NCBI GenBank assembly: GCA_963662545.2
Contig: CAXXLL010000003.1
Span: 224,001 to 288,000, forward strand
Direction of reading: 5' to 3'
Source: Gammaproteobacteria bacterium
GTDB lineage: Bacteria > Pseudomonadota > Gammaproteobacteria > Ga0077536
DNA length: 64,000 nt
Shown piece after piece: positions 32,781 through 51,484 of this stretch. The first letter of the stretch is position 1; every line of letters begins with the position of its first letter. The position numbers and the translations under genes are program-made. The notes beneath the pieces were generated by a model. It searched no databases, was not told the origin of the DNA, and was given only the letters and a program-made list of their open reading frames with translations.

Positions 32781-32923
32781 GCGTTCGCAACTTCCACGGT
32801 GTTCTGAGTGATGCCAGACTATTCATAAGATTCAATCTGTTCGGTTGACTCTGGTAGCTTGACACGTCCACTGAGTGCTACTACATTCCCACTCGTTGTG
32901 TGGGATCGAATGAGGGTACGACT

Positions 32924-34114
32924 GTGGCAGCCAGACTGACGGCGAGGTTCGCGGCGACGGTGACGAAGCCGGGCCGGCACGGCGACGGCAATGGCCTCTA
33001 TCTGCTGGTCAAGCCGAGCGGCGCGAAGTCCTGGGTTCTGCGAACCGTCGTGCGCGGGCGGCGGTGCGACATCGGACTCGGCGGCTACCCATTGGTCTCA
33101 CTGGCGGAAGCCCGAACGGCGGCTTTCGAGCATCGCAAGCTGGCTCGTGCCGGTGGCGACCCGCTGGCACGCAAGCGGCGACGGGACATACCGACCTTTG
33201 AAGAAGCCGCTCGCATGGTGATCGAAATCCACACACCGACGTGGCGCCCTGGCGGCAAGTCGGCGGAGCAATGGGAGTCCTCGTTGCGGCAATACGCCTT
33301 TCCGCGTCTCGGAGCCAAGTGCGTGGACACGATCACCACGGCGGACGTGATGGTAGTCCTGGTTCCGATCTGGACCGATAAGGCCGAGACCGCCCGCCGT
33401 GTTCGCCAACGCATCAGTGCGATCATGAAGTGGGCGGTCGCACAAGGGTATCGCGCCGACAATCCCGCCGGCGAGGCGATTGCGGCCGCATTGCCGAGAG
33501 TCGGCGACACGCGTCGGCATCTTCGAGCGGTTTATCACGCCCAGGCCGGTGACGCGGTCAGGGCGGTCAGGGGATCGCAGAGTTCGCTCGCGGCACGGCT
33601 GGCGTTCGAGTTCCTGGTTCTGACCGCGGCACGTTCCGGGGAGGTACGGGGCGCTGTGTGGTCCGAGTTCGATCTGGAGGCGGCGGTATGGACGATACCC
33701 GGCGAGCGGATGAAGGGCGGACGCGATCATCGCGTTCCGCTATCGGACCGGGCGCTGGCGCTCCTCGATGAGGCGCGGGCGCTCGATGACGGAAGCGGCT
33801 TGGTGTTTCCGTCGCCGGTCGGGCGCAAGCCGATGTCCAATTCGATGCTTTCCCAGTTGTTGCGCGAACTCGATATCGATGCCGTTCCGCACGGCTTCCG
33901 TTCGACCTTCCGGGACTGGTGTTCGGAATTCGCGCAGGCGCCTGGCGCAGTTGCCGAAGCCTGCCTCGCCCACGTCGTGAAGGGTGTCGAGGGCGCTTAT
34001 GCCCGCTCGGATCTGTTGGACCGCCGCCGCAATCTGATGGAGCGGTGGGCCGCGTATCTAAATCCCGAGCCGGCAACTGTGGTGTCGCTTGACGTGCGGC
34101 GGACGACAAGTTGA
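32924..34114 (+). CDS. Tyrosine integrase, P4-like, with arm-binding domain
   Basis: GRHGDGNGLYL...KSW arm domain; catalytic R (ARSGE), K (MKGGRDH), HGFR, H (LAH), Y (AYARSD). Confidence 0.95.
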   Translation: MAARLTARFAATVTKPGRHGDGNGLYLLVKPSGAKSWVLRTVVRGRRCDIGLGGYPLVSLAEARTAAFEHRKLARAGGDPLARKRRRDIPTFEEAARMVIEIHTPTWRPGGKSAEQWESSLRQYAFPRLGAKCVDTITTADVMVVLVPIWTDKAETARRVRQRISAIMKWAVAQGYRADNPAGEAIAAALPRVGDTRRHLRAVYHAQAGDAVRAVRGSQSSLAARLAFEFLVLTAARSGEVRGAVWSEFDLEAAVWTIPGERMKGGRDHRVPLSDRALALLDEARALDDGSGLVFPSPVGRKPMSNSMLSQLLRELDIDAVPHGFRSTFRDWCSEFAQAPGAVAEACLAHVVKGVEGAYARSDLLDRRRNLMERWAAYLNPEPATVVSLDVRRTTS

Positions 34115-34260
34115 CGCGGTGGGCAGCGATTACCACCCTCTCCCCGGGTGGGAGGACTTTAACGAATGCCGCACGACGGTCCCGGTGCCGGCGACTCCGG
34201 GCGAACCTGCGGTGAGGCCTGAGCCGTTGCGCCCATTGCCTCCGGCAAAACCGCGCAGAC

Positions 34261-35169
34261 GTGAACAAACCTAACACACCGGACACGAGCGTGCCGGCAG
34301 CGGGTGCGGATTTGGATAGGTTCCTGCTCAAGATAACCGGCTTCGCGGCCTTGACGGATTTGTTCTGTACGGGCATGTCCGAGACCGAATCCGAAAGGCT
34401 ATGTTGGGACGCCCAACATTTCGCCTTTCTGGCTTCTAATTACCGAGAGCGTTTCGAGAATGACAAAATCATCCTAAGGCATGACGAAGCCGTGGAGGCC
34501 TACCGACTCTTATCACCGCTTATACGCGCGTCACAGGACCCAATTGTTTATAGCCGGATGATGGTTTCCCGGCTTCTCGATACCGGAGGCTTGGCCCTTG
34601 ACCCTGGCGCCGTAGAGACGCTTCTCCACGAGCATGAGGATGATGCCTGTTTCGAGGGCAAAGAGGCTTGGGACAGATATATAACCCACGAAGCACTCCT
34701 CCTCTCCGTGGAGCGCATAGACCGCAAGGAGCGCACCGAAGCGATCGATCCCGATTGGCGCTGGTTGCGCGATCAGTGCCGAGACGTACTTGAACGCCGG
34801 CCCGTCACTCGCCCACGCGGCGGGAGGCTCGATCCGCGCATTCGCGAACTGCGCGACGCGCTGGTGAGCGCGTACTTGCAATTGTTCGACGGCTGCGGGC
34901 TTACCGTCACTTCCCGGAACGGTGTCTCACTTGCTAGCGCGATGGCAGAGGCGACGGACATCCCCGAAACCACCATCGACAGCATTTGGCGGCGCGCTGG
35001 CGCTGGGGTTGGAGCATTTCCACCGTATCGTGACGATATGCACTCACGGGAGCGATTCGTTACGTGCGCCGGTTGCGGCGCCCCGGTGCCGAAGATTGAC
35101 GCAGGACTCGACTTTGAGTCTGGGCGAGGCGAGCCGCGTTGCGAGTCGTGCCGCGGCCTTCGGGAATAG
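34261..35169 (+). CDS. Hypothetical protein with HTH-like segment and C-terminal CxxC...CxxC zinc finger
   Basis: CAGC...CESC near the C-terminus; lies between the integrase and alpA. Confidence 0.5.
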   Translation: MNKPNTPDTSVPAAGADLDRFLLKITGFAALTDLFCTGMSETESERLCWDAQHFAFLASNYRERFENDKIILRHDEAVEAYRLLSPLIRASQDPIVYSRMMVSRLLDTGGLALDPGAVETLLHEHEDDACFEGKEAWDRYITHEALLLSVERIDRKERTEAIDPDWRWLRDQCRDVLERRPVTRPRGGRLDPRIRELRDALVSAYLQLFDGCGLTVTSRNGVSLASAMAEATDIPETTIDSIWRRAGAGVGAFPPYRDDMHSRERFVTCAGCGAPVPKIDAGLDFESGRGEPRCESCRGLRE

Positions 35170-35266
35170 CACGACCAATTTTATTCTTCGTACCGCGAGC
35201 CGCGGTTCTTCTGTAATCCTCGCGAGCTAAGCCGGTGCCTGGCCGGTCTGAACGAGGATTTCAAAG

Positions 35267-35488
35267 ATGAACAGATTGTTGCGGCGACCCGAAGTCGAAT
35301 CGATCACCGGACTGTCGAGGGCGAGCATCTACGCCAAGATGCAGAAGGGCGAATTCCCCGCACCGGTGCGACTCGGCACCAACTCCGTAGCTTGGCGTGT
35401 AGTCGATATCGAGGCCTGGATTGAGTCCCTTCCTCCGGCGAGGTTTCACAAAGCCGGTTGTAGCGAATCCCGCAAAGCGGCGGAGTGA
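35267..35488 (+). CDS. alpA: AlpA-family regulator/excisionase
   Basis: LLRRPEVESITGLSRASIY...FPAPVRLG...VAW. Confidence 0.92.
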   Translation: MNRLLRRPEVESITGLSRASIYAKMQKGEFPAPVRLGTNSVAWRVVDIEAWIESLPPARFHKAGCSESRKAAE

Positions 35489-35613
35489 AGCGTGGAATGG
35501 GAGTTGTGCCCGGCCGCGGTGCCTTGGTATCGAGAGTTGTGTCGGCGGTGGGCGCTCTGGCGGCGTGCGTCTGCGGCGATCCGTCGGGCTGTTCACGCCC
35601 TCCGGTGTGCCGT

Positions 35614-36570
35614 ATGACCACGCCACAGTTCGACCGGCACGCGCTGCGGGCTGCGCTGCTTGAACGGCTACCGGAATTCGTGCGCGCCTACGCGCCAGCG
35701 GATACCGTAGTCCGCGAGCATGGCCACGAGATCCGCATCGGCCGCAAGGGCTCCATCGCGATTGCGCGCGACCAGGGTCTCTACTTCGATTTCGAGCATG
35801 GGCGTGGCGGTGACGTGCTCGCACTCGCGGCCGAACTCACCGGCGCCCGCGACTTCCCTTCCACGTTGCGCGCCGTGGCCGCGTTCGTTGGTGGCGTACC
35901 GATGCCGGCATCGCGTGACCGCACGCGGCGAAGCCGGCCGAAGACATCATCGACGAACACGCGGGCGGCAGCGCGAAAAATCTGGAAGGCGACCCGTCCG
36001 ATCGGCGCGACACTCGCCGCCGCGTACCTCGATGCACGTGGTGTCGAACACGTCGCCAGCGCTGCAGCGCTTCGCTTCCATGCGAGCCTCTCGCATCCCA
36101 ATGGACCGGGAGGCTTTCCAGCGCTAGTGGCGGGTGTCCAGGACGTGAGCGGGCGATTCCTTGGTATCCAACGCACGTACCTCCATGGGTCGCATAAGGC
36201 AGCCGTGGAGCCTGTACGCGCTTCGCTCGGAAGCCTCGCCGGTGGTGCGGTGCGGCTTGGCGAGCCGGTAGCGGGCCGGCTGCTGATTGGTGAGGGAATC
36301 GAATCGACGGCGGCGGCGATGCGCGTGCTCGACTGGCAGGGCGGCGCATGGGCGACGCTCGGCACGTCCGGACTGCGCGCCGTAGTATTGTCCGCTGAGA
36401 TTCGTGACGTGGTGATTGTGGCGGATCGCGATGCGAACGGCGCAGGCCAGCTTGCGGCGGCGGCGCTCGCCTGGCGGCTCGAAGCCGAAGGCCGCGTGGT
36501 CGAAATCGTCATTCCGACCGTGATTGGGCATGACTTTGCCGACGAGTTGAAGGCATCCCGCGATGCCTGA
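35614..36570 (+). CDS. Toprim-domain primase-like protein (DUF7146/Toprim_3 type)
   Basis: DFEHGRGGD, YLDARG, GIQRTYL, GEGIES, ADRD, DFAD. Confidence 0.85.
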   Translation: MTTPQFDRHALRAALLERLPEFVRAYAPADTVVREHGHEIRIGRKGSIAIARDQGLYFDFEHGRGGDVLALAAELTGARDFPSTLRAVAAFVGGVPMPASRDRTRRSRPKTSSTNTRAAARKIWKATRPIGATLAAAYLDARGVEHVASAAALRFHASLSHPNGPGGFPALVAGVQDVSGRFLGIQRTYLHGSHKAAVEPVRASLGSLAGGAVRLGEPVAGRLLIGEGIESTAAAMRVLDWQGGAWATLGTSGLRAVVLSAEIRDVVIVADRDANGAGQLAAAALAWRLEAEGRVVEIVIPTVIGHDFADELKASRDA

Positions 36571-38215
36571 ATCCATGAATTCAACCGAAGCCGCCCGCGA
36601 GGGCACGGTTCGCTCGAAGCTCCCGCCCGAAATTCGGGAACTGCTCGACGCGGCACAGACTGACATCGGAGCGCCGTTGGAGCCGCACGCGGCGGAGATA
36701 CTCCGTAAAGCGCGGTCGGAGGACTTGGCGACCTACGAACGATTTCGAGCCGAATATAGGCGTTGCGGGGGACGTATCAGCGCCCTGGACCAGGCGACGG
36801 CACCGACCGATGGTGAGCATGGTGACGGCGGGCAGGGCCGGCCCATCGAGTGGAACGATCCGGACCCATGGCCGGTGCCGGTCGATGGTGCGGCGCTGCT
36901 CAATGCCCTGTTGGCGCTGTTCGAACGTCACGCCAGCCTGCCCGAAGGGGGCGCCGTGGCCGTGGCCTTGTGGGCGCTCTACGCCTGGTGCTTCCGCGCC
37001 TTCGCCGTGTGCCCCAACCTGATGTTAACGGCGCCGGAACGCGAATCCGGCAAGACCCGTGTTACCGAAATTCTGTCTTGGACGGTCCCTAGAGCGAAGC
37101 CGGTCAGCGACGCATCCGCGGCGGCAATCATTCGCGGTATCGAACGCGACGGCCCGACGCTTCTGTTCGATGAAGCGCAACATTTTTTGCGCCGGCGACC
37201 GGGCGATCCGATCCGCGGAATCCTGCTCGCGAGTTTTACGAAGCGCTTCGCCATCGTCGAGCGGTGCGAGGGCGATGCGCATGAAGTTCGCGCCTTCTCA
37301 ACGTTCTGCCCAAAGGCGCTGAATGGGCGCAAGCTCGCGGCAATCGATGACATGCTCACGTCCCGCTCGGTGGTCGTTCCGATGATGAGGGCGACCAGGC
37401 CGCTTCCGGAATTACGGGTGGATCGCGATCCCGCAGGCGAAGACTTGCGACGCCAGTGCGCACGCTGGCGCGACGACCACCTAGCCGAACTCCGAGAAGC
37501 TGACCCCGACACAGGTGGGCGGATTGGGCGCATCGCGCAAGTCTGGCGTCCGTTGTTCGCCGTGGCGGATGCGGCTGGCGGCGAGTGGCCTAAGAAGGCG
37601 CGAGCCGCCGCGGCCGCGCTTGCGGCAATGGCGGCGACCTTTTCAGACGGTGAAACACTCGGACTGATGTTGCTCACCGACGTGCGAGCCGTGTTCGAGG
37701 AGAAGGGCAACCCGCAGCGCATCGCTTCTAAGGAACTCGACGAGGCGTTACGCGACCTTCCCGAACGGCCTTGGGCTTCGATGCCTAAGACCGGCAAGGC
37801 AATCACGGCGCAAGCGCGCGGGCGGATGCTTGCGAACTACGGTGTCAAGGCGGAAACGCTCCGGTTCGACGATGCGAAAGACGCGAAGGGGTATCGGCGC
37901 GACGCGTTCGAGGAAGTTTGGAGCGCCTACCTTCCCGAAGCGGGCGGTAATGGAACCGTTGAACCGTTGACGGGCCCTGAATCAAGGGATTTCGGCGACT
38001 CGCGAACCGTTGACGGTAATGGCAGGGTCAACGATTCGAAGAGCGCGAAAACCCCTGCACCACAAGGGGTGTCAACGGTTCAACGGTTCGAAAACAGGGG
38101 TGCGGAGGGAAAAGGCACGCCGGAACCGTTACACGAACCGCTCACGTTGCGGCAACAACCGCTTGGCAAGCTGACCGCAGCCGAAACATACCGGCGGGCG
38201 AGCCGCGGCGAGTAG
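36563..38215 (+). CDS. DUF3631-type P-loop replication/helicase-like protein
   Basis: DPWPVPVDG, APERESGKT (Walker A), TLLFDE, ERPW, KGYRRDAF..W..YL. Confidence 0.8.
   Translation: MPESMNSTEAAREGTVRSKLPPEIRELLDAAQTDIGAPLEPHAAEILRKARSEDLATYERFRAEYRRCGGRISALDQATAPTDGEHGDGGQGRPIEWNDPDPWPVPVDGAALLNALLALFERHASLPEGGAVAVALWALYAWCFRAFAVCPNLMLTAPERESGKTRVTEILSWTVPRAKPVSDASAAAIIRGIERDGPTLLFDEAQHFLRRRPGDPIRGILLASFTKRFAIVERCEGDAHEVRAFSTFCPKALNGRKLAAIDDMLTSRSVVVPMMRATRPLPELRVDRDPAGEDLRRQCARWRDDHLAELREADPDTGGRIGRIAQVWRPLFAVADAAGGEWPKKARAAAAALAAMAATFSDGETLGLMLLTDVRAVFEEKGNPQRIASKELDEALRDLPERPWASMPKTGKAITAQARGRMLANYGVKAETLRFDDAKDAKGYRRDAFEEVWSAYLPEAGGNGTVEPLTGPESRDFGDSRTVDGNGRVNDSKSAKTPAPQGVSTVQRFENRGAEGKGTPEPLHEPLTLRQQPLGKLTAAETYRRASRGE
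37953..38089. repeat. Nested inverted iteron-like repeats (candidate replication origin)
   Basis: Perfect 19-bp IR GAACCGTTGAACCGTTGAC (37953-37971 / 38071-38089) enclosing a 12-bp IR with one mismatch (38003-38014 / 38027-38038). Confidence 0.75.
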
Positions 38216-40185: not shown

Positions 40186-40535
40186 CCCTATCCGAAGCAC
40201 TTAGAAAATGAAGAACCATCGCTTGGGAGAACGGGCACTGTGAGCGTTTCAACGCACGCTTCCGTGATTCGTTGCCCGACGGGGACATCTTTTACAGCTT
40301 ACGAGAGGCGCAGATTCTGATCGAACCATGAAGGAGGCACTACCACACAAAACGGCCCCACAGCGCTTTGGGCTACCCACTACCGGCCCCGGAGACCATC
40401 GTTTCCATGGGCCAAAGGCCGATCATGCGCTAACAATCAAAATGGCACACCCAATCAGGGCAGGTCAATGGCTTTTAGCAGCTCCCGCCGCATTTCTGCT
40501 CTGTTGATCAACCTGGTTAGCCAAGAACGAACGAA

Positions 40536-41517
40536 ATGCCACAAGTCGGACCTCAAGCAGTACTGGTAGTAGAGGACACGCTCGACGATCTAATGCGCGA
40601 GGTAATGTGTCGAATACTTGATAACGGAGCGCAAATTTCACCTAGCAGAGGTAAGGCTAAAGAACTTGTTGGTGTCCTTCTCCAGCTACGAGATACCCGG
40701 GCTCGGATAAGTCTTACAGAGACTCGCGGGAAGCCGTTTAGTGCGTTAGGAGAGTTTTGCTGGTACCTCGCGGGCTCGCGAGATGCCGATTTCATTAGCT
40801 ATTACGTACCCAAGTATCGAGGTATCAAGAGGATGGACAAATATATGGAGCATATGGTCCGAGACTGTTCGATTGGAAGGATACCAATCAACTGAACAAC
40901 GTAATTCAGTGCCTTAGAACTAGCCCTGATACTCGACGAGCTGTTATACAGCTATACGATGCCGTAGATATTGTCCAGTCGCACAAGGATGTTCCTTGCA
41001 TGTTCCTTGCACGTGCACGATCCAATTTTTGGTACGTGACGGATTGCTCAACGTTTTCACAACGATGCGATCTAATGATGCATATCTCGGGCTGCCGCAC
41101 GACATTTTCTGCTTCACAATGCTACAAGAGGTTGTCGCCAATACGTTGTCGCTTCCTGTGGGGATGTACATGCATGCAGTTGGAAGTCTTCATCTATATG
41201 ACGAACATTCGCCCAACGTCTACAAGTATCTCAACGAAGGATGGCAAAGTAGTTGCCCTATGCCCCCAATGCCCAGCGAGGATCCTTGGGAGGCTTTAAA
41301 AGCACTAAAAGTTTTCGAAGAACAGTTACGGAAAAGTGATTCTGTTGACGGTATGCGAGTTCCGGACATTGCGGAATATTGGAAAGACCTAATGAGGCTA
41401 TTGCTCATATTTAGACTGAAAAATGATGGCAACATTAAGGCGATTCGAGACGAAAGAGACCGGATGTACAGCAACGTTCTTCAGATACACGTTGATAAGC
41501 TCGTGTTAGAGGTCTAG
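40536..41517 (+). pseudogene. Thymidylate-synthase-fold enzyme (dCMP/CMP hydroxymethylase-like), split over three frames
   Basis: EFCWYLAG / YGAYGPRL...DTRRAVI...DVPC / MRSNDAYLGLPHD...GSLHLY. Frameshift near 40820 and an 11-bp tandem duplication at 40989-41010. Confidence 0.88.
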
Positions 41518-41571
41518 CGATTAACAATGTCTTAGTGCCGGTAGGAATCATCAGACGGGTGAATTTGAAGC

Positions 41572-42372
41572 ATGCACGACGCAATTGCGATTTTATTGGA
41601 TCGACTAGAGCGTAAACCAGAGCTATCTACGGGCGTCATTGGGTGGGGTAGCCCTGTACCTTCGTTCGGTGACCTAAGTCGTTCTTTTGTGGCGACGCTA
41701 GGGATCAATCCTAGCAACCGCGAATTTGTCGATAATTCAGGCGAAGAACTGACTGGAACTGGGCGTCGCTTCCATACTCTTCAATCGCTTGGTATTGATT
41801 CGTGGAAGGAAGCAAATGCGCGGCACATCCAATTAATAGTCAACTCTTGCCGAGCATATTTCGAAGGGAATCCTTACGATTTGTGGTTCAAGCGCCTAAA
41901 CAATGTTATCGCTGGATCCGGAGCTTCTTACTACGACCAATTTACGCCAGCATGTCACCTGGATCTGGTTCCATATGCAACTATCGAAAAATGGAGCGCA
42001 CTTGAGAAATCTCATAAAACAAAATTGATTGAGGAGAGCTGCGACATACTCGGAAGACTTTTGCGTGACTCTCGCGTTGAACTGTTAATTTTGAATGGTC
42101 GTTCCGTTGTCGACAGTTTTGAAATGCTTATGGAAGCGAAACTCGAACGGAGCGAAATGCCAGAATGGTCGTTGCCAAGGAGTTCAGGCAATCTGGTAAC
42201 TGGGATTGCGTATTCGGGGGCCATAAGCTGTATTGCTGGATTCGATTTGTGTCGTGACATCCAGGTAGTAGGATTCAATCACAATATTCAAAGTAGCTAC
42301 GGTGTGACGACGGAAGTGTGCGATTCGATTAAGAACTGGATCGCTAATGAAACAGCTTGGCGATCGTGGTGA
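41572..42372 (+). CDS. Hypothetical protein, probable uracil-DNA-glycosylase-like fold
   Basis: PVPSFGD, TLGINPS (UDG motif-A-like), HLDLVPYAT, ILNGR, FNHNIQS (motif-B-like). The fold is inferred. Confidence 0.55.
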   Translation: MHDAIAILLDRLERKPELSTGVIGWGSPVPSFGDLSRSFVATLGINPSNREFVDNSGEELTGTGRRFHTLQSLGIDSWKEANARHIQLIVNSCRAYFEGNPYDLWFKRLNNVIAGSGASYYDQFTPACHLDLVPYATIEKWSALEKSHKTKLIEESCDILGRLLRDSRVELLILNGRSVVDSFEMLMEAKLERSEMPEWSLPRSSGNLVTGIAYSGAISCIAGFDLCRDIQVVGFNHNIQSSYGVTTEVCDSIKNWIANETAWRSW

Positions 42373-43307
42373 GGCCAAAAGATAAAGAATTGGCAGAAGA
42401 ACTTGGGACAGCGCTTGAGTCGTTTGTGACGAATGTCCATCCGCTGCCCGGAATCTCCGCTGCTGATTCGAAGCAGGCTCTGATCGCGCAAATGCTAGAG
42501 AGCTTGCATCGAATAAATTACGTACCAGTTATTTTGAAGCGGGAAATTTCCGAGAAACGGGCGAATCCGGGAAGTGAACTGTTCGATCCGCTAAAGGCTG
42601 CCATTCTCAAAATCCGAACTGGAGATATCGAAGAGGCGTTTTGGCTTACATTTCTGTATGTGCATTTTGGTAAGAACCCCAAAGGCGGATGGAGATATGT
42701 TCGAGAGATCTACGGGGGGCGAAGTGATCGGGTAGTCTGGAATTGGAGCGCTGTAAGCGCGGATTGCGCGGCCTTCAGAACTTGGTTGGATGGGAATCGA
42801 GCATTCTTAGAACGGAAGAACCCTCCGGGTGGCTTTGGCAATCATCGAAAATACGAAAACTTAGATGCAATGGGAGATAATGCTTCCGGTGCCGCAATAG
42901 CAAGCTATGTTAATTGGGTAGCCCCACCGCGGTCGCATCAGCAAATGGTCGCACATGCGGTAGCCCATACGTCGGGAAACAAATTCAATGTATTCGATTA
43001 CCTTTTCCGCTCAATGGAAGCGGTAAGGCGGTTTGGTAGGACCGCTAAGTTCGATTATCTGGCTATGCTCGGGAAGCTCGAGTTAGCTCCTATTGCTCCA
43101 GGATCGGCGTATATGACTGGGGCGACGGGTCCACTATTTGGCGCTCGGCTTTTGTTCCATGGAGGCCGAAACGCAGGTTCTGTCCGCGAACTTGATACGT
43201 TGCTCCTGCGTCTTGATGAATATCTTAAGGTTGGGATGCAGGTAATCGAAGATTCGTTGTGTAACTGGCAGAAGAGCCCGCGTGTGTTTAAAGCCTTCAG
43301 AGGTTAA
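42369..43307 (+). CDS. Alpha-glutamyl/putrescinyl thymine pyrophosphorylase clade-3-like (HhH-glycosylase-fold) protein
   Basis: FDPLKAA, EAFWL.FL..HFG, FGNHRKYE, RFGRTAKFDYL, ATGPL.GARLL, EDSLCNWQKSP. GTGA overlap with the upstream stop. Confidence 0.8.
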   Translation: MRPKDKELAEELGTALESFVTNVHPLPGISAADSKQALIAQMLESLHRINYVPVILKREISEKRANPGSELFDPLKAAILKIRTGDIEEAFWLTFLYVHFGKNPKGGWRYVREIYGGRSDRVVWNWSAVSADCAAFRTWLDGNRAFLERKNPPGGFGNHRKYENLDAMGDNASGAAIASYVNWVAPPRSHQQMVAHAVAHTSGNKFNVFDYLFRSMEAVRRFGRTAKFDYLAMLGKLELAPIAPGSAYMTGATGPLFGARLLFHGGRNAGSVRELDTLLLRLDEYLKVGMQVIEDSLCNWQKSPRVFKAFRG

Positions 43308-43318
43308 CGACCTCTAAC

Positions 43319-44408
43319 TTATGACCAAGCGTATCGGCGTTTAAGTTTATTAAGCTGATCTCTTCTGATTTTTCCCTTGTGTTGGAGTTGTCCAACTACG
43401 ATGCCGGGTGCAATTCCAATACGGATGGAAAAGCGGAGAACTGCTTCGGTATTCGCGCTCAACCTATTGAACTCGTCTCTAGCGTCATCGGGAATCAATA
43501 CGCTTTCGGCGAAAGAGTTTGCTTCGCGTTCTTGGGCCTCGTCGGGTTCCTCACCGTACTCGATAACCGGAGACTTCGTCTTATGCAAAATCAAATGGCC
43601 GGCTTCGTGAAAAAAAGAAAACCAAAAATGATCATCGGATCGGTACCGAAAGCTAAGTAGCAACATCGCTTTCGAATCATTCAGGAACTGTGTGGCACCA
43701 CTAGCGCGGCATCCAGTCGGTTCACGAACAACAACAATCGCAACACCAGCTGCCGCGCAAAGGTCTCGAAGACTCGGTAGAAACTTATCTGGGTCCTTAA
43801 CTTTTGTTAGCTTGCGCGCTGCGTGAAGTTGTTGTGAGTTGTGAGAAAACTTCTGCGTCCCAATTGGCACACTGAATTTCTTCCGCATCAATCTGTCCTT
43901 TTCGGAGCCAAGCTGCGACCGCTTCAGGTGTGGACTCAAACGTTTTTGATGTTCGAAAATTCGTGCTGTTTATTACGTCGCTGTATGTCGCATGCCAGCT
44001 CGGCACATCATGAACATTAAAAAATTTTAAGCAGGCAGATAGCTCTTCAGATGGGAGTGGAGTTCGATCTAACCACTTGTATTGGATCATGTCGTTCAAC
44101 GGAAGGCGTCGAATCCAGTCTCTAGCGCCGCCGTCGATACGTGCGGAAGCTTCTCTGTATTGGTAGTCCCTGGACATCCAAAATTCAACGGGTGCTCCTA
44201 AACAGTCTGAAATCGTGCGTGCCGTATCAAGGGAGATTGTTTCGCGACCTTCTAGGAGGCCGGAAACATAATCCGACGGGAGCCCCGACTGAGCAGAAAA
44301 TTCTTCTGCTGATTGATTGCGTCCGTTTAGAATGTCCTGGATTGTTGCGCCGGGAGGGCAAACCCAGTTTGGCGCAAAATCTTGGTCGCTAGGCTTCAAC
44401 GATGTCAA
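43319..44408 (-). pseudogene. HigA-like HTH antitoxin fused to ImmA/IrrE metallopeptidase, frameshifted
   Basis: PPGATI...FWM HTH; FWFSFFHEAGH (HExxH); EREANSFA. A 7-bp tandem duplication at 43832-43845 shifts the frame. Confidence 0.85.
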
Positions 44409-44712
44409 TCTCCATTATCATGATACGACTAACTCGTTTCCAGTCTACATTACCAGACACGTCAATGGGATTATTTGGGTGATTTGCGCGGAATTTTAGA
44501 GTTCCGTTTGGTGGGAGGGTAATTCTCCGAGCGCCATCCGCATCAATAAGCGTCGATAATCCTACGACGATATCGTTGATTGATGATGCTGCGCGGAGAT
44601 CGGCTAACCGATTAACAAGCTGCTGCCCGATTTCGTTGCCCAACTGATCGGCGGAAACTCGCTCGTCCTCGCACACTGTGCGCAGATCCCTTGTCAGGAA
44701 CGAAATAATCAT
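44389..44712 (-). CDS. HigB/RelE-like toxin (killer-protein family)
   Basis: ISFLTRDLRTVCE...RLADLRAA...DWKRVSRIMIMEI; toxin-first arrangement overlapping the HigA-ImmA start. Confidence 0.75.
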   Translation of the reverse strand: MIISFLTRDLRTVCEDERVSADQLGNEIGQQLVNRLADLRAASSINDIVVGLSTLIDADGARRITLPPNGTLKFRANHPNNPIDVSGNVDWKRVSRIMIMEIDIVEA

Positions 44713-44803
44713 AGTCAGAAGTACTGATAGCTAGTATCGCTGTGTCTAAGTAACAGGGCATCGTGACACTGGCATAGGGTATGCTGTGCCCCCCCCGATA
44801 AAG

Positions 44804-45142: not shown

Positions 45143-46585
45143 TCAACGAATCACGCTCCAAAACGAGCTCTTCCTTCCATGCTCGCGGCGTAGCCTGGCT
45201 TCATAAGCGTCGTGTGGTTCGTATACCCCGAAATCCTCGATCGCCGATGCCAGACTCGAACACGCCATGAGATGTCGTGCGGCGTGCTTGTATCGACTGG
45301 AGCGGCGGTGTGTCAGCGCGAAGTCGATCATGGAGCGAAACACCAGCGTCGCGGCCAGCGGATACTTGCCGGCCATCGCGTCGGCCGCCGGGGTCAGTAG
45401 CTCATAGTGATTGCCGTCCAGAGCCGCCGCGCTCCGAATAGTGAGCGCGGATGCTCTGTCCAGGGCAGGCCACAACACCAGGAATGACAACGCCCGGAGC
45501 GGGTTCTCGTAGCTCTGCGCATAATCGAGCGCCCGCTCCTCGGCTTCAAAGTCGTCAAAGTCGGGCAGCCGCCTCAGATAGGCACGTAGATGCGGGATCG
45601 ACAACGCTCGCTCGAAGCACGACCAGCGATCCGCCTGGGCCTCGTCGCCGCGGCCGAGTGCATCGAGCACCTCGATCCGTGCGTCCTCCCACGCGAAGTC
45701 CGGCCAGTCCCAGGCATCGTCCCTGTGCTCGGTAGTGTCGAGCGTCTGCAATGCCTCTTCAGCCCTGTCCGCCGCAAGCAACCGCCGGGCGATCTGCGCG
45801 GCAATATTCGGTATTTTTCTCGTTTGCCCGTCATATTGGGCGATGAATGCATCAACATCACCCTGGGCATCCGCAATCTTGGTCAATGCCTGGCGTACCG
45901 TGCTGGCCCGGGACCGTTCGGCCGGTGCGTCGACGTGGTCCGGGCTCCCCGATCCGTGGGTGGCCGTACACCGCTCCCCATCGGACGACTTGCGAACGGA
46001 TTCTTTAGACAGCGTGATCATGCGCTGCTTCAGATGCTCCAGGCCTGCCTGCCCCAGGGCCGGTGCCAGAACCTGGAGCAGGGAGTCGTACTGACCATAG
46101 CCGTTGTCGATCAGCGCTTGGAACGCGTCGTCGGCAAGCCTTTTCGGAGCGGGCCTTGCGGCTTTCGCAATCTCGCCGAGGTCGTTGGCGGCGTGGTCGA
46201 AGATACCGATCACGGTGCCACTACTGTCATCGCAGCGCTCGAATATTGAGCCGGCCAACGCCATGAAACGCCACATCAGGTCGAGTCCCTCGACCGGATC
46301 GTCCTTGGCCACCTTGTCAACGATGGCGCGGCGTTGCATATCCAGATCGTCGACCAAGGTCCGCCGGTTCCGCCAGTCGACGAACGAGCGCGACCTTGCA
46401 ATCGTCGCCAGCCGTTTGCGGATTTCTCGCGCAACTGCGGCGGGGCTTTCCTCACTGGCGAGCTCCAGCCGGAGACGGCGTTTGGCGGTAGTGTTGCCGG
46501 TGCTGATCTCGATCAACAGCTCGGCAAGCCGCTGGGCGCCCAGCGCCTCGAGGTTCTTTGCGTTCAGTGTCTTCTTTGAAGACCT
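45143..46585 (-). CDS. DUF6880-like all-helical protein (start codon apparently AGG instead of ATG)
   Basis: SSKKTLNAKNLEALGAQRLAELL..., RCDDSSG, LPDFDD, HGRKSSFW. Confidence 0.7.
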   Translation of the reverse strand, partial: RSSKKTLNAKNLEALGAQRLAELLIEISTGNTTAKRRLRLELASEESPAAVAREIRKRLATIARSRSFVDWRNRRTLVDDLDMQRRAIVDKVAKDDPVEGLDLMWRFMALAGSIFERCDDSSGTVIGIFDHAANDLGEIAKAARPAPKRLADDAFQALIDNGYGQYDSLLQVLAPALGQAGLEHLKQRMITLSKESVRKSSDGERCTATHGSGSPDHVDAPAERSRASTVRQALTKIADAQGDVDAFIAQYDGQTRKIPNIAAQIARRLLAADRAEEALQTLDTTEHRDDAWDWPDFAWEDARIEVLDALGRGDEAQADRWSCFERALSIPHLRAYLRRLPDFDDFEAEERALDYAQSYENPLRALSFLVLWPALDRASALTIRSAAALDGNHYELLTPAADAMAGKYPLAATLVFRSMIDFALTHRRSSRYKHAARHLMACSSLASAIEDFGVYEPHDAYEARLRREHGRKSSFWSVIR

Positions 46586-50098: not shown

Positions 50099-51484
50099 GA
50101 GTTATTGTCAAAAGTGGTGTTCAGGCGGTTGAATCAAGCGGCGACCTGATTGACCCTTGTCACCTCGATACCATCTTCAAATTTAACTCCAGTAATCACC
50201 TTGGCCAGGTAGTCGAATCCACGTAGGCGTCGCCAATTCTTCTGCGCACACCGCCCCAGCTTGAACATCATATGGAGCATGCCGTCCCGAGAGAGACCGC
50301 CCTTGGAGCGCCGGGTCCGGTGCCGGATCGTAGCGAAGGTGGATTCAATCGGATTGCTCGTGCGAATGCTTTGCCAATGTGGTGCCGGAAAATCATAGAA
50401 CGCCAGCAACTCCTCACGGTCTTTCTGTAGGCACAGGGTCGCCTTGGGATACTTCGGTTCATAGGTCTTGAGGAACAGCTCGAACGCCTTCTCGGCGTCG
50501 GCCTTTGTCGCGGCCTGCCAGATCGCGTGCAGGGCTTGCTTGGCTTTGGCCTGTGCCGACTTCGGTAGGCAGTTCAGCACGTTCATCGTCTTGTGCATCC
50601 AGCAGCGTTGCTGGCGGGTCTCACCGTAGACTTCCTCCAGTGCGGCCCAGAAGCCCATGGCACCGTCCCCGATCGCCAGCTTGGGAATATTCATCCCGCG
50701 TGACTTCAATTTCAGCAACACCTCGCGCCAGCTCTGCGTGGACTCCCGCACACCATCCTCCATCGCCAAAAAACGCTTCTCGCCTCGCTCATTGACGCCG
50801 ATCACCACCAACGCACACAGCTTCGTGTGCTCCGCCCGCAGGCCACTGTAGACACCGTCCGCCCACACCTACACCCAGCGGTCTTGGTCCAATCGCCCCT
50901 CGCACCAGTCGCGGTATTCTTGCGCCCACACCTGCTTCAAGCGCGACACGGTGCTCGCCGACAGGCCCTTCGCCTGCGGCCCCAACAAAACTTCCAGCGC
51001 AGCGCCCATTTCGCCACTGGAAACGCCCTTCAAATACAGCCACGGCACGGCCGCCTCCAAGGTTCTTGTCTTGCGCACATACGGCGGCACCAGCGCTGAA
51101 CGGAAGGTCACCGGCTCGCCGAGCTTCGAACGAACCTTCGGGATCCTCACCGTCACCGGCCCCAAGCCCGTCTGCAACTGGCGTTCCGGCAAATAGCCGT
51201 TGCGAACCACACCTGCTTTGTCGTCCGCCGTGCGATGTCCTGAATACTGCGCCATATATTCTGCCAGCTCGATTTCAACCGCTCGTTCAATCAGAGCCCG
51301 AGCACCGTTTCTCAAGACCTCCGTCAACGGATCTGGTATTCCTTCTCGACCTGATAATTCAACAACCTTACTCTCTCTCATGGTGGCGTATCCTCTTTGG
51401 TTGGCTTGCTGCTTGGTAACAACATTTCAACCAGATACGCCGCCTTTATTCAATTCGCTCAAACACCAGATTCAGTTATAACTC
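50099..51484 (-). mobile_element. IS256-family element; transposase 50134-51381 with internal TAG at 50869-50871
   Basis: Imperfect IRs GAGTTATTGTCAAAAGTGGTGT / ACACCAGATTCAGTTATAACTC; RNGY, WADGVY, QRCWMHK, RTSNPIES. Confidence 0.93.

Follow-up and report, generated by a model that had tools for sequence, protein, structure and literature searches.

A stretch of 64,000 nucleotides from a Gammaproteobacteria bacterium (GenBank assembly GCA_963662545.2, contig CAXXLL010000003.1, positions 224,001 to 288,000), hereafter called the window, carries a gene of the thymidylate synthase (TS) superfamily which, in our judgment, probably encodes a deoxycytidine monophosphate (dCMP) hydroxymethylase heading a mobile module with an amino acid:DNA transferase (AADT)-like partner, the module being inactive in this assembly. 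The gene and the motif on which its predicted specificity turns are located as follows:

40536 to 41517, + strand: MilA-like gene of the TS superfamily, predicted dCMP C5-hydroxymethylase, lying in three frames in this assembly and giving PF00303 matches.
41065 to 41103, + strand: motif MRSNDAYLGLPHD, with the phosphate-binding Arg-Ser, the Asn-Asp and the specificity Asp at the position of ThyA Asn177.

A preliminary description of this DNA, made from its letters alone, had placed at 41065 to 41105 a motif in which Asp takes the place of the Asn of ThyA. Translation of the window does encode MRSNDAYLGLPHD at 41065 to 41103 of the + strand, and its last Asp aligns with Asn177 of ThyA, Asp179 of T4 gp42 and Asp186 of MilA. 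The landmarks given there, Asn177 in ThyA and RSND followed by Asp in gp42, are correct according to these alignments, and comparison with ThyA, T4 gp42 and MilA leaves the Asp in the specificity column and not elsewhere. In phmmer comparisons of the motif region with PDB sequences, the Asp falls opposite the Asn of 'GVPFN' in the solved thymidylate synthases RSADVFLGVPFN and RSADIFLGVPFN, and it pairs with the mutant Asp in the L. casei N229D entries (1njc, 1njd) and with that of MilA MRANDAFRGAVSD ('GAVSD'). When T4 gp42 (NC_000866), three family members and the ThyA of this genome were aligned by MAFFT with the window pieces, the Asp came to lie under that of T4 gp42 'MRSNDVVFGFRND' and under the Asn of ThyA 'QRSADIFLGIPFN'.

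Published work on this superfamily assigns pyrimidine choice to position 177 (E. coli ThyA numbering unless stated), where Asn goes with uracil and Asp with cytosine (PMC5175136, PMC13326640, PMC8670742). Other positions are described as setting the sugar and the product: Ala176 and Lys133' of MilA confer a preference for ribose, Ser and Arg one for deoxyribose (PMC5175136); at residue 143 a bulky hydrophobic side chain (Leu) goes with a methyl product and an acidic one with a hydroxymethyl product, and D169N is the mark of flavin-dependent 5-hydroxy-dCMP synthases (PMC13326640). The C-terminal piece of the window gene retrieved 965 longer proteins at E <=1e-5, and the best 120 of these (311-563 amino acids, aa; 44-57% identity to the window piece) were aligned with MAFFT. 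Their residues at the diagnostic positions are:

Asn177 position: Asp in 120/120 members.
MilA Ala176 position: Ser in 120/120 members.
MilA Lys133' position: Arg in 120/120 members.
Asp169 position: Asp in 120/120 members.
Leu143 position: Asp in 88, Glu in 15, Ser in 10, Asn in 3, His in 3, Lys in 1; no bulky hydrophobic residue.
His147 position: Thr in 120/120 members.
Catalytic Cys (ThyA Cys146): Cys in 119/120 members.

The other catalytic and phosphate-binding positions of TS are kept as well (the Glu58-type Glu in 117 members, Arg170 in 119, and Ser171, Arg129 and the equivalents of His207 and Tyr209, His211 and Tyr213, in all 120). The window gene carries the same determinants, visible as KDVPC, TRR, MRSND and PHD, and with them the residues expected of a gp42-type dCMP hydroxymethylase: Asp177, the Ser169-type and Arg123'-type residues and an acidic residue at position 143. 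Among the 80 metagenome loci of the survey described below, Asp occupies the specificity column in 61 of the 61 from which the motif region was recovered, the region lacking in the other 19. With such invariance the motif is not a product of chance. The cytosine specificity proposed in the preliminary description is supported, and the further residues narrow it: to dCMP rather than CMP because of the Ser and Arg at the MilA Ala176 and Lys133' positions, to a hydroxymethyl rather than a methyl product because of the acidic residue at the Leu143 position, and away from a 5-hydroxy-dCMP synthase because Asp169 is kept. The signature is of T4 gp42 type on a MilA-like scaffold, and the predicted reaction is the conversion of dCMP to 5-hydroxymethyl-dCMP.

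As to the scaffold, the window pieces match PF00303 at 1.1e-15 (58 bits, the cut-off being 24.3) and 4.1e-5 (23.3 bits, just under the cut-off), and they belong to a bacterial family with members of about 320 aa, to which MilA is the nearest among solved structures. The intact member P0004 matches MilA, a CMP 5-hydroxymethylase (5jnh, 5b6d), at 2e-42 over about residues 17-287, a match that spans a C-terminal extension absent from ThyA; its match to the best thymidylate synthase structure reaches 3e-17, others being weaker, and it scores far under all NCBIfam ThyA cut-offs (74.3 vs 174.55; 69.7 vs 327). A canonical full-length ThyA is encoded elsewhere in the same genome (contig C2, 412 bits), and in 60 relatives of the genome no copy of the TS-like family was found, 57 having thyA-grade matches only (22-32% identity) and three none. 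Judged from these comparisons, the gene is not a thymidylate synthase and falls in a bacterial clade of the TS superfamily related to MilA. Since it matches MilA over ThyA, since the family scores under the ThyA cut-offs, and since a canonical thyA stands on a different contig of the genome, whose relatives have no family copy, it is an acquired paralogue and not the housekeeping enzyme.

The gene is followed by the other members of the module, among them a protein of the alpha-glutamyl/putrescinyl thymine pyrophosphorylase (aGPT-Pplase) family, a protein with the fold of the uracil-DNA glycosylases (UDG), a helix-turn-helix (HTH) regulator and a small open reading frame (ORF):

41572 to 42372, + strand: intact protein of 266 aa with a UDG-superfamily fold, recognised from an AlphaFold2 model and Foldseek.
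42357 to 43307, + strand: intact aGPT-Pplase clade 3 (aGPT-Pplase3), AADT-like protein of 316 aa (PF18746 at 1.6e-95, 320 bits; PF18724 at 2.8e-65, 221 bits).
43319 to 44408, - strand: HigA-type HTH domain fused to an ImmA/IrrE (M78) peptidase, split into overlapping ORFs of 203 and 206 aa (Pfam HTH_3, Peptidase_M78).
44389 to 44712, - strand: small conserved ORF of 107 aa upstream of the regulator, with a counterpart in 71 of 80 loci.

To follow this arrangement, one genome per species (185,579 species) was surveyed by a pattern scan that gave 226 confirmed stretches, from which 80 loci of at least eight phyla were kept; families shared by these loci were defined by tblastn and all-against-all clustering of their ORFs. 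In an independent test from the side of the partner, a scan of metagenome contigs with an aGPT-Pplase3 alignment gave 492 confirmed stretches, the best 80 being retained; as these are the loci most like the window, the sample is biased to the UDG-containing form. The TS-like gene comes first, followed by the optional UDG-fold gene and aGPT-Pplase3, with the HigB-like and HTH-ImmA genes convergent to them. Across the 80 genome loci, the TS-like gene is found in 80, aGPT-Pplase3 in 76 (three of the four misses being contigs that end too early), HTH-ImmA in 74, the ORF of about 110 aa in 71 and the UDG-like ORF in 59. All 50 metagenome loci with more than 2 kb upstream of aGPT-Pplase3 have the TS-like gene, and all 54 with more than 1.5 kb downstream have ImmA. 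The pairing with a family named for thymine hypermodification, which the preliminary description had pointed out, is therefore real and near-obligate (76/80 genome loci, 50/50 informative metagenome loci). No further family is common to more than six of the 80 genome loci, shadow ORFs aside, and the ORF clustering found no kinase, dCTPase, deaminase or glycosyltransferase common to them. A single locus with room downstream, in a Verrucomicrobiota metagenome-assembled genome (L052, 2522-4281), has the TS-like and UDG-like genes and lacks the small ORF, ImmA and aGPT-Pplase3, perhaps as a remnant or as another layout.

The aGPT-Pplase3 partner has a near-invariant C-terminal motif, MQxxEDxxCNWQK, that supplies Glu298 and Cys302 as candidate catalytic residues: E298 is invariant and C302 present in at least 90% of 20 sequences, and both are present in at least 95% of 69 sequences. 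A Cys and an adjacent Glu are described as essential to enzymes of clade 2 (PMC8989533, PMC11472151), and Cys247 of PaMx11 gp46 is the nucleophile that attacks C6 of the flipped base (PMC11472151). In clade 2 the pair serves for attack at C6 of a 5-substituted pyrimidine in DNA. For the AlphaFold2 model of the partner (predicted local distance difference test score, pLDDT, 92.2), Foldseek found matches in BFVD to predicted structures of AADT-domain proteins from phages (E 3e-4 to 7e-3, probability 1.0, template-modelling (TM) score 0.4-0.58). Its sequence has no meaningful match in the PDB, tblastn against 50,697 phage records returned no match, and a 3-methyladenine glycosylase at rank 38 of the Foldseek PDB list (E 1.8) is not significant. 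The aGPT-Pplase clades were reportedly defined by Iyer et al. 2013 (NAR 41:7635).

The UDG-like protein has no sequence match in Pfam, NCBIfam or the PDB. Its AlphaFold2 model (pLDDT 91.8) retrieved TDG, family 4/5 UDG, UdgX, MUG and SMUG1 as top Foldseek matches (E from 2.9e-5, probability 1.0, target-normalised TM 0.5-0.67), so that the UDG-like neighbour of the preliminary description holds at the level of the fold. It displays GINPS in the window (GLNPS in the family consensus) with an invariant Asn46, and NHNxQSS; GLNPS presumably resembles the GINPG of MUG and TDG. TDG complexes with 5-hydroxymethyluracil (5hmU) are among the top fold matches of the model, and action on 5hmU is possible. 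The gene is missing from 21 of the 80 genome loci.

At each of the 11 other loci checked, the regulator occupies one unbroken ORF (354-382 aa). It gives a sub-threshold match to the HigA model TIGR02607, and PADLOC assigns its ImmA part to PD-Lambda-2_B, RmrA and capP; the TS-like, UDG-like and aGPT-Pplase3 proteins are covered by none of its models. The 107-aa ORF has no usable Pfam or NCBIfam match; the ESM Atlas clusters nearest to it bear the automatic names HigA or RelE/ParE toxin (scores 0.93-0.96), which gives a lead that it is possibly HigB/RelE-like.

The preliminary description, by speaking of a repaired protein, had implied that the TS-like gene is broken, and the window translation indeed runs through three reading frames, from 40536 to about 40821, from about 40822 to about 40999 and from about 41000 to 41517. 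Together with the regulator, the cassette holds three breaks:

40821 to 40822, + strand: first frame break, where public-run contigs carry an additional base (X1, X3, X4 and a loose end of X6).
40989 to 41010, + strand: second frame break; a perfect 11-base tandem duplication (40989-40999, 41000-41010), with one copy in public contigs.
43831 to 43844, - strand: regulator break; a perfect 7-base tandem duplication, with a single copy in public contigs.

The module is inactive in this assembly, through two frameshifts in the hydroxymethylase gene and one in the regulator; the 11-base duplication sits on the catalytic Cys codon of 'VPC', which lies at the duplication junction. Otherwise identical intact copies of the cassette are present in public runs. 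The Logan contigs of four such runs (two studies) were compared with window positions 40300-44800, and in all four the 4.5 kb show no substitutions and differ by exactly these three insertions or deletions (indels); the contigs of X6 cover the indel sites in pieces, with a loose end at 40821 that starts with the extra base. All three indels break a frame, and they are confined to the hydroxymethylase and regulator genes, the UDG-like, aGPT-Pplase3 and small ORFs being intact. A programmed frameshift in the hydroxymethylase gene was considered and rejected: single-frame copies are the rule, with an ORF of at least 300 aa in 77 of the 80 loci.

The breaks are, in our estimate, rather likely to be real lesions. 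The rival reading, that all three are assembly faults and that the organism holds an intact, working cassette, is the less probable of the two but carries real weight. It draws on the agreement of four runs of four with the 4.5 kb except at these three indels, on the chance that one run is the very sample behind the window assembly, and on a spectrum, three indels with zero substitutions, that would be odd for natural decay. Set against this, the lesions are untypical of consensus errors: two are perfect tandem duplications (11 and 7 bases), and the third, a single base, lies outside any homopolymer. The rest of the window has no comparable load either: 37 non-overlapping ORFs of at least 250 aa are open over 42.4 kb, a length for which the rate seen in the cassette predicts about 28 indels. 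Moreover, all three fall in the two genes that, once lost, would leave a possibly toxic module silent or deregulated. The public contigs leave mutation and assembly fault undecided, because one run may be the source of the window and because contigs mask minority variants. Shortened cassette genes occur in a few other loci (L046, L082, L050, L019, L089, L086, L068), affecting the TS-like gene in 3/80, aGPT-Pplase3 in 5/76 and the regulator in 6/74; cassette decay is consequently not unique to the window genome.

As to the substrate, the gene could encode a CMP hydroxymethylase of the MilA/BcmA type that starts a small-molecule pathway, with the UDG-fold protein as a MilB-like N-glycosidase and aGPT-Pplase3 decorating free 5-hydroxymethylcytosine (5hmC) or its nucleotide. 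Of the solved relatives MilA is much the closest (2e-42), the alignment running on through the C-terminal extension; the UdgX-dUMP complex 6ajp is among the fold matches of the UDG-like model; and in the MilA and BcmA pathways, an N-glycosidase follows these enzymes (PMC5175136, PMC4081090). We nevertheless consider this reading unlikely, since the window gene and 120/120 members have Ser and Arg, the gp42/ThyA state, at the two ribose positions, and the MilA A176S/K133R mutant is described as having lost CMP activity (PMC5175136). In addition, the partner family is known to act only on DNA (PMC8989533, PMC11472151), no transporter or other biosynthetic gene is conserved near the 80 loci, and 21 of these lack the UDG-like gene.

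Comparably improbable is an enzyme that takes dCMP and makes another C5 product, either 5-methyl-dCMP (ThyA N177D/phage XP12 type) or 5-hydroxy-dCMP (flavin-dependent RB69 gp48 type). Asp177 alone is stated to be enough to make ThyA methylate dCMP (Liu and Santi 1992; Hardy and Nalivaika 1992, cited in PMC8670742), and TS homologues with Asp177 and an acidic residue 143 are described as having proved to be 5-hydroxy-dCMP synthases (PMC13326640). The Leu143 position, Asp or Glu in 103/120 members and never bulky hydrophobic, argues against methyl; the Asn at 169 that is given as diagnostic of the synthases (PMC13326640) is absent, Asp standing there in the window and in 120/120 members; and MilA, which stands nearest among the characterised relatives, is itself a hydroxymethylase. 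It is very improbable, finally, that the gene encodes a normal or back-up thymidylate synthase turning dUMP into dTMP: the PF00303 match and the RefSeq name and dTMP-biosynthesis term of homologues would fit it, but the window has Asp for Asn177, Asp for Leu143 and Thr for His147, every NCBIfam ThyA equivalog score is far under its cut-off, and the genome has a canonical thyA, its 60 relatives having no copy of the family (57 with thyA-grade matches only, 3 with none).

Several points weigh against a dCMP hydroxymethylase joined to an AADT-like partner in an immune module. The residue at position 177 is a major determinant of pyrimidine choice, not the sole one, and the window gene as assembled is incapable of giving a full-length protein. 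On the side of the partner, MQxxEDxxCNWQK aligns with 'IQEVETVLCKW' of M6 gp51 through a local match that is weak (E 0.045), and Foldseek of the aGPT-Pplase3 model against the PDB gave nothing at E <0.4 and did not recover PaMx11 gp46. The characterised AADTs belong to clade 2, act on phosphorylated 5hmU in DNA and need the 5-HMUDK kinase; no kinase is conserved across the 80 loci, and the kinase-free attack on 5hmC proposed here is without precedent in the aGPT-Pplase family. Kinase-free substitution at 5hmC through attack on C6 is chemically plausible, as in the methyltransferase-directed derivatisation of 5hmC. The defence reading, for its part, rests on one E. coli region and a machine-learning prediction. 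Among 20 ORFs flanking the cassette at 11 isolate loci, seven have Pfam matches, no classic defence family being among them: two are AraC-type regulators and the others a catalase, PutA, a DJ-1 protein, a C1 peptidase and an AlkZ-like glycosylase. This sample lends no support to a defence-island setting.

Homology, diagnostic residues, gene order and the frame breaks are shown directly by the sequences; from them we infer the substrate, the product, the DNA-level steps and the biological role of the cassette, and the most likely mechanism would run as follows. Release of the HTH-ImmA switch would let the hydroxymethylase divert dCMP to 5-hydroxymethyl-dCMP, and host kinases and polymerase would place 5hmC in replicating DNA; a phage TS homologue expressed alone in E. 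coli is described as enough for trace incorporation of its product (PMC13326640). The AADT-like enzyme would then derivatise 5hmC at C5 with no dedicated kinase, and the UDG-fold enzyme, where present, would excise a related base. We lean weakly towards an anti-phage role or abortive DNA poisoning, as more likely than permanent self-marking, on account of the protease-repressor switch, the mobility, the E. coli setting, the listing by DefensePredictor of an unvalidated aGPT-Pplase system, and the inactivation restricted to the cassette. A bolder proposal, which we put forward tentatively and think will more probably prove wrong than right, is that clade-3 aGPT-Pplases are no thymine enzymes but kinase-free DNA transferases directed at 5hmC and that the cassette is an immune or abortive module that floods replicating DNA with 5hmC, which is converted to a cytosine adduct, bulky or open to excision, whose chemical class is so far undescribed. 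If this were true, the triple inactivation restricted to the cassette would be a trace left by selection against a module that had become deregulated and self-toxic.

To our knowledge, the aGPT-Pplase/AADT hypermodification known so far starts from 5hmU, needs a DNA kinase and serves phage counter-defence. The cassette departs on each point, with a hydroxymethylase of the cytosine type, no kinase and a location on bacterial chromosomes and plasmids across many phyla. The Asp rule is textbook knowledge and the name of the partner family stands in Pfam and RefSeq; the interest of the finding lies at the level of the family, the window copy being inactive as assembled. Our literature search found no experimental study of the cassette. 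The operon may already be depicted by Iyer et al. 2013 or in the supplementary material of DefensePredictor. Should the reading be true, hundreds of 'thymidylate synthase' annotations with a dTMP-biosynthesis term would need correction, hypermodification chemistry would acquire a cytosine branch open to testing and a candidate defence system would gain a mechanism. In RefSeq, homologues are named 'thymidylate synthase' on two plasmids (L096, L097) and an E. coli chromosome (L179), and the two plasmid records carry dTMP-biosynthesis Gene Ontology terms; this naming is probably a systematic mis-annotation. One E. coli homologue has the accession WP_000174035.1. Newer records call the partner 'alpha-glutamyl/putrescinyl thymine pyrophosphorylase clade 3 protein'.

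Known systems resemble the cassette in part. T4 gp42 shares with the TS-like family the TS fold, RSND, Asp177, the Ser169- and Arg123'-type residues, an acidic residue three positions before the Cys, Thr after it and the same predicted reaction (described in PMC5175136 and PMC13326640). It differs in being distant in sequence (it is absent among the 60 listed PDB matches of P0004), in its 246 aa without the C-terminal helical extension of about 100 aa, and in being phage-encoded and working with a dCTPase, a dNMP kinase and glucosyltransferases, none of which is conserved around the cassette. MilA/BcmA of the mildiomycin and bacimethrin pathways, with MilA the closest solved relative (aligned over residues 16-297), share the C-terminal extension, Asp186, Asp at the Leu143 position and the 'ACT' and 'RxND' motifs, whereas the family has the deoxyribose-type Ser for Ala176 and Arg for Lys133' and the cassette context lacks a MilB-type glycosidase or an antibiotic cluster. 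Phage thymidine hypermodification (M6, PaMx11, ViI, SP10, PhiW-14) combines a dUMP hydroxymethylase, the 5-HMUDK kinase and an aGPT-Pplase/AADT of clade 2. The cassette has in common with it a hydroxymethylase of the TS family and an aGPT-Pplase enzyme with a Cys/Glu motif (PMC8989533, PMC11472151), but its hydroxymethylase is of the cytosine type, its partner belongs to clade 3, no kinase, pyridoxal phosphate or radical S-adenosylmethionine enzyme is conserved with it, and it is bacterial, both chromosomal and plasmid-borne.

DefensePredictor (PMC13092281) lists an aGPT-Pplase system among predicted, unvalidated defence systems, and the legend of its Fig. 6F names aGPT-Pplase, HTH and UDG domains; that system may be the same as the window cassette. 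The same source validated a system of TS, dNMP kinase, 5hmdU kinase and NMAD, which, unlike the cassette, has kinases; the likeness is that of host-encoded, phage-type nucleotide- or DNA-modifying enzymes proposed or shown to act in defence (PMC13092281). Brig1 and Brig2 similarly use a UDG-superfamily fold outside repair, against modified pyrimidines in DNA (PMC11078745; bioRxiv 10.1101/2025.10.29.685425). They act alone on phage-made modifications, while the UDG ORF of the cassette is an optional third gene of a modified-nucleotide operon.

Among phage proteins, gp319 of Bacillus phage G is the best relative of the TS-like protein (30% identity). This protein (L094, 5992-7038), annotated 'thymidylate synthase', has KDVPCT, MRSND, PYD and a long C-terminal extension, and it is encoded near the alpha-glucosyltransferase gp313 and the dCMP deaminase gp317. 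From the cytosine/hydroxymethyl signature of gp319 and the proximity of gp313 and gp317, phage G may make glucosylated 5hmC.

Of 5426 complete E. coli genomes, 235 carry the cassette, which in the single E. coli region inspected lies amid insertion sequence (IS) elements, a MazG-like gene and a type I restriction-modification system. It was found on 10 of 72,556 plasmids, among them one Pantoea record with phage head and lysis genes and an adjacent restriction endonuclease. In the window it is carried by the backbone of an integrative island:

32900 to 38215, + strand: island backbone, encoding a tyrosine integrase and DUF7146-Toprim and DUF3631 proteins.

Guanine-plus-cytosine content is 0.47-0.50 on the cassette side (41-45 kb) vs 0.61-0.67 at the island start (33-39 kb). 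The island (window positions 32900-56000) contains IS copies (IS240-type DDE, Mutator, DDE_Tnp_1) amid polysaccharide and sugar-modification genes; it is flanked on one side by an epimerase, CmcI-type and C-methyltransferases and an MBOAT protein and on the other by a DegT aminotransferase and a UDP-glucose dehydrogenase. A full-length DUF6880 protein (589 bits; 45143-46516, - strand) adjoins the cassette and is not conserved with it elsewhere. A Mutator-family (IS256-type) transposase at 50134-51381 (- strand) lies in two adjacent ORFs (profile positions 165-352 and 24-158), a broken mobile gene within the same island.

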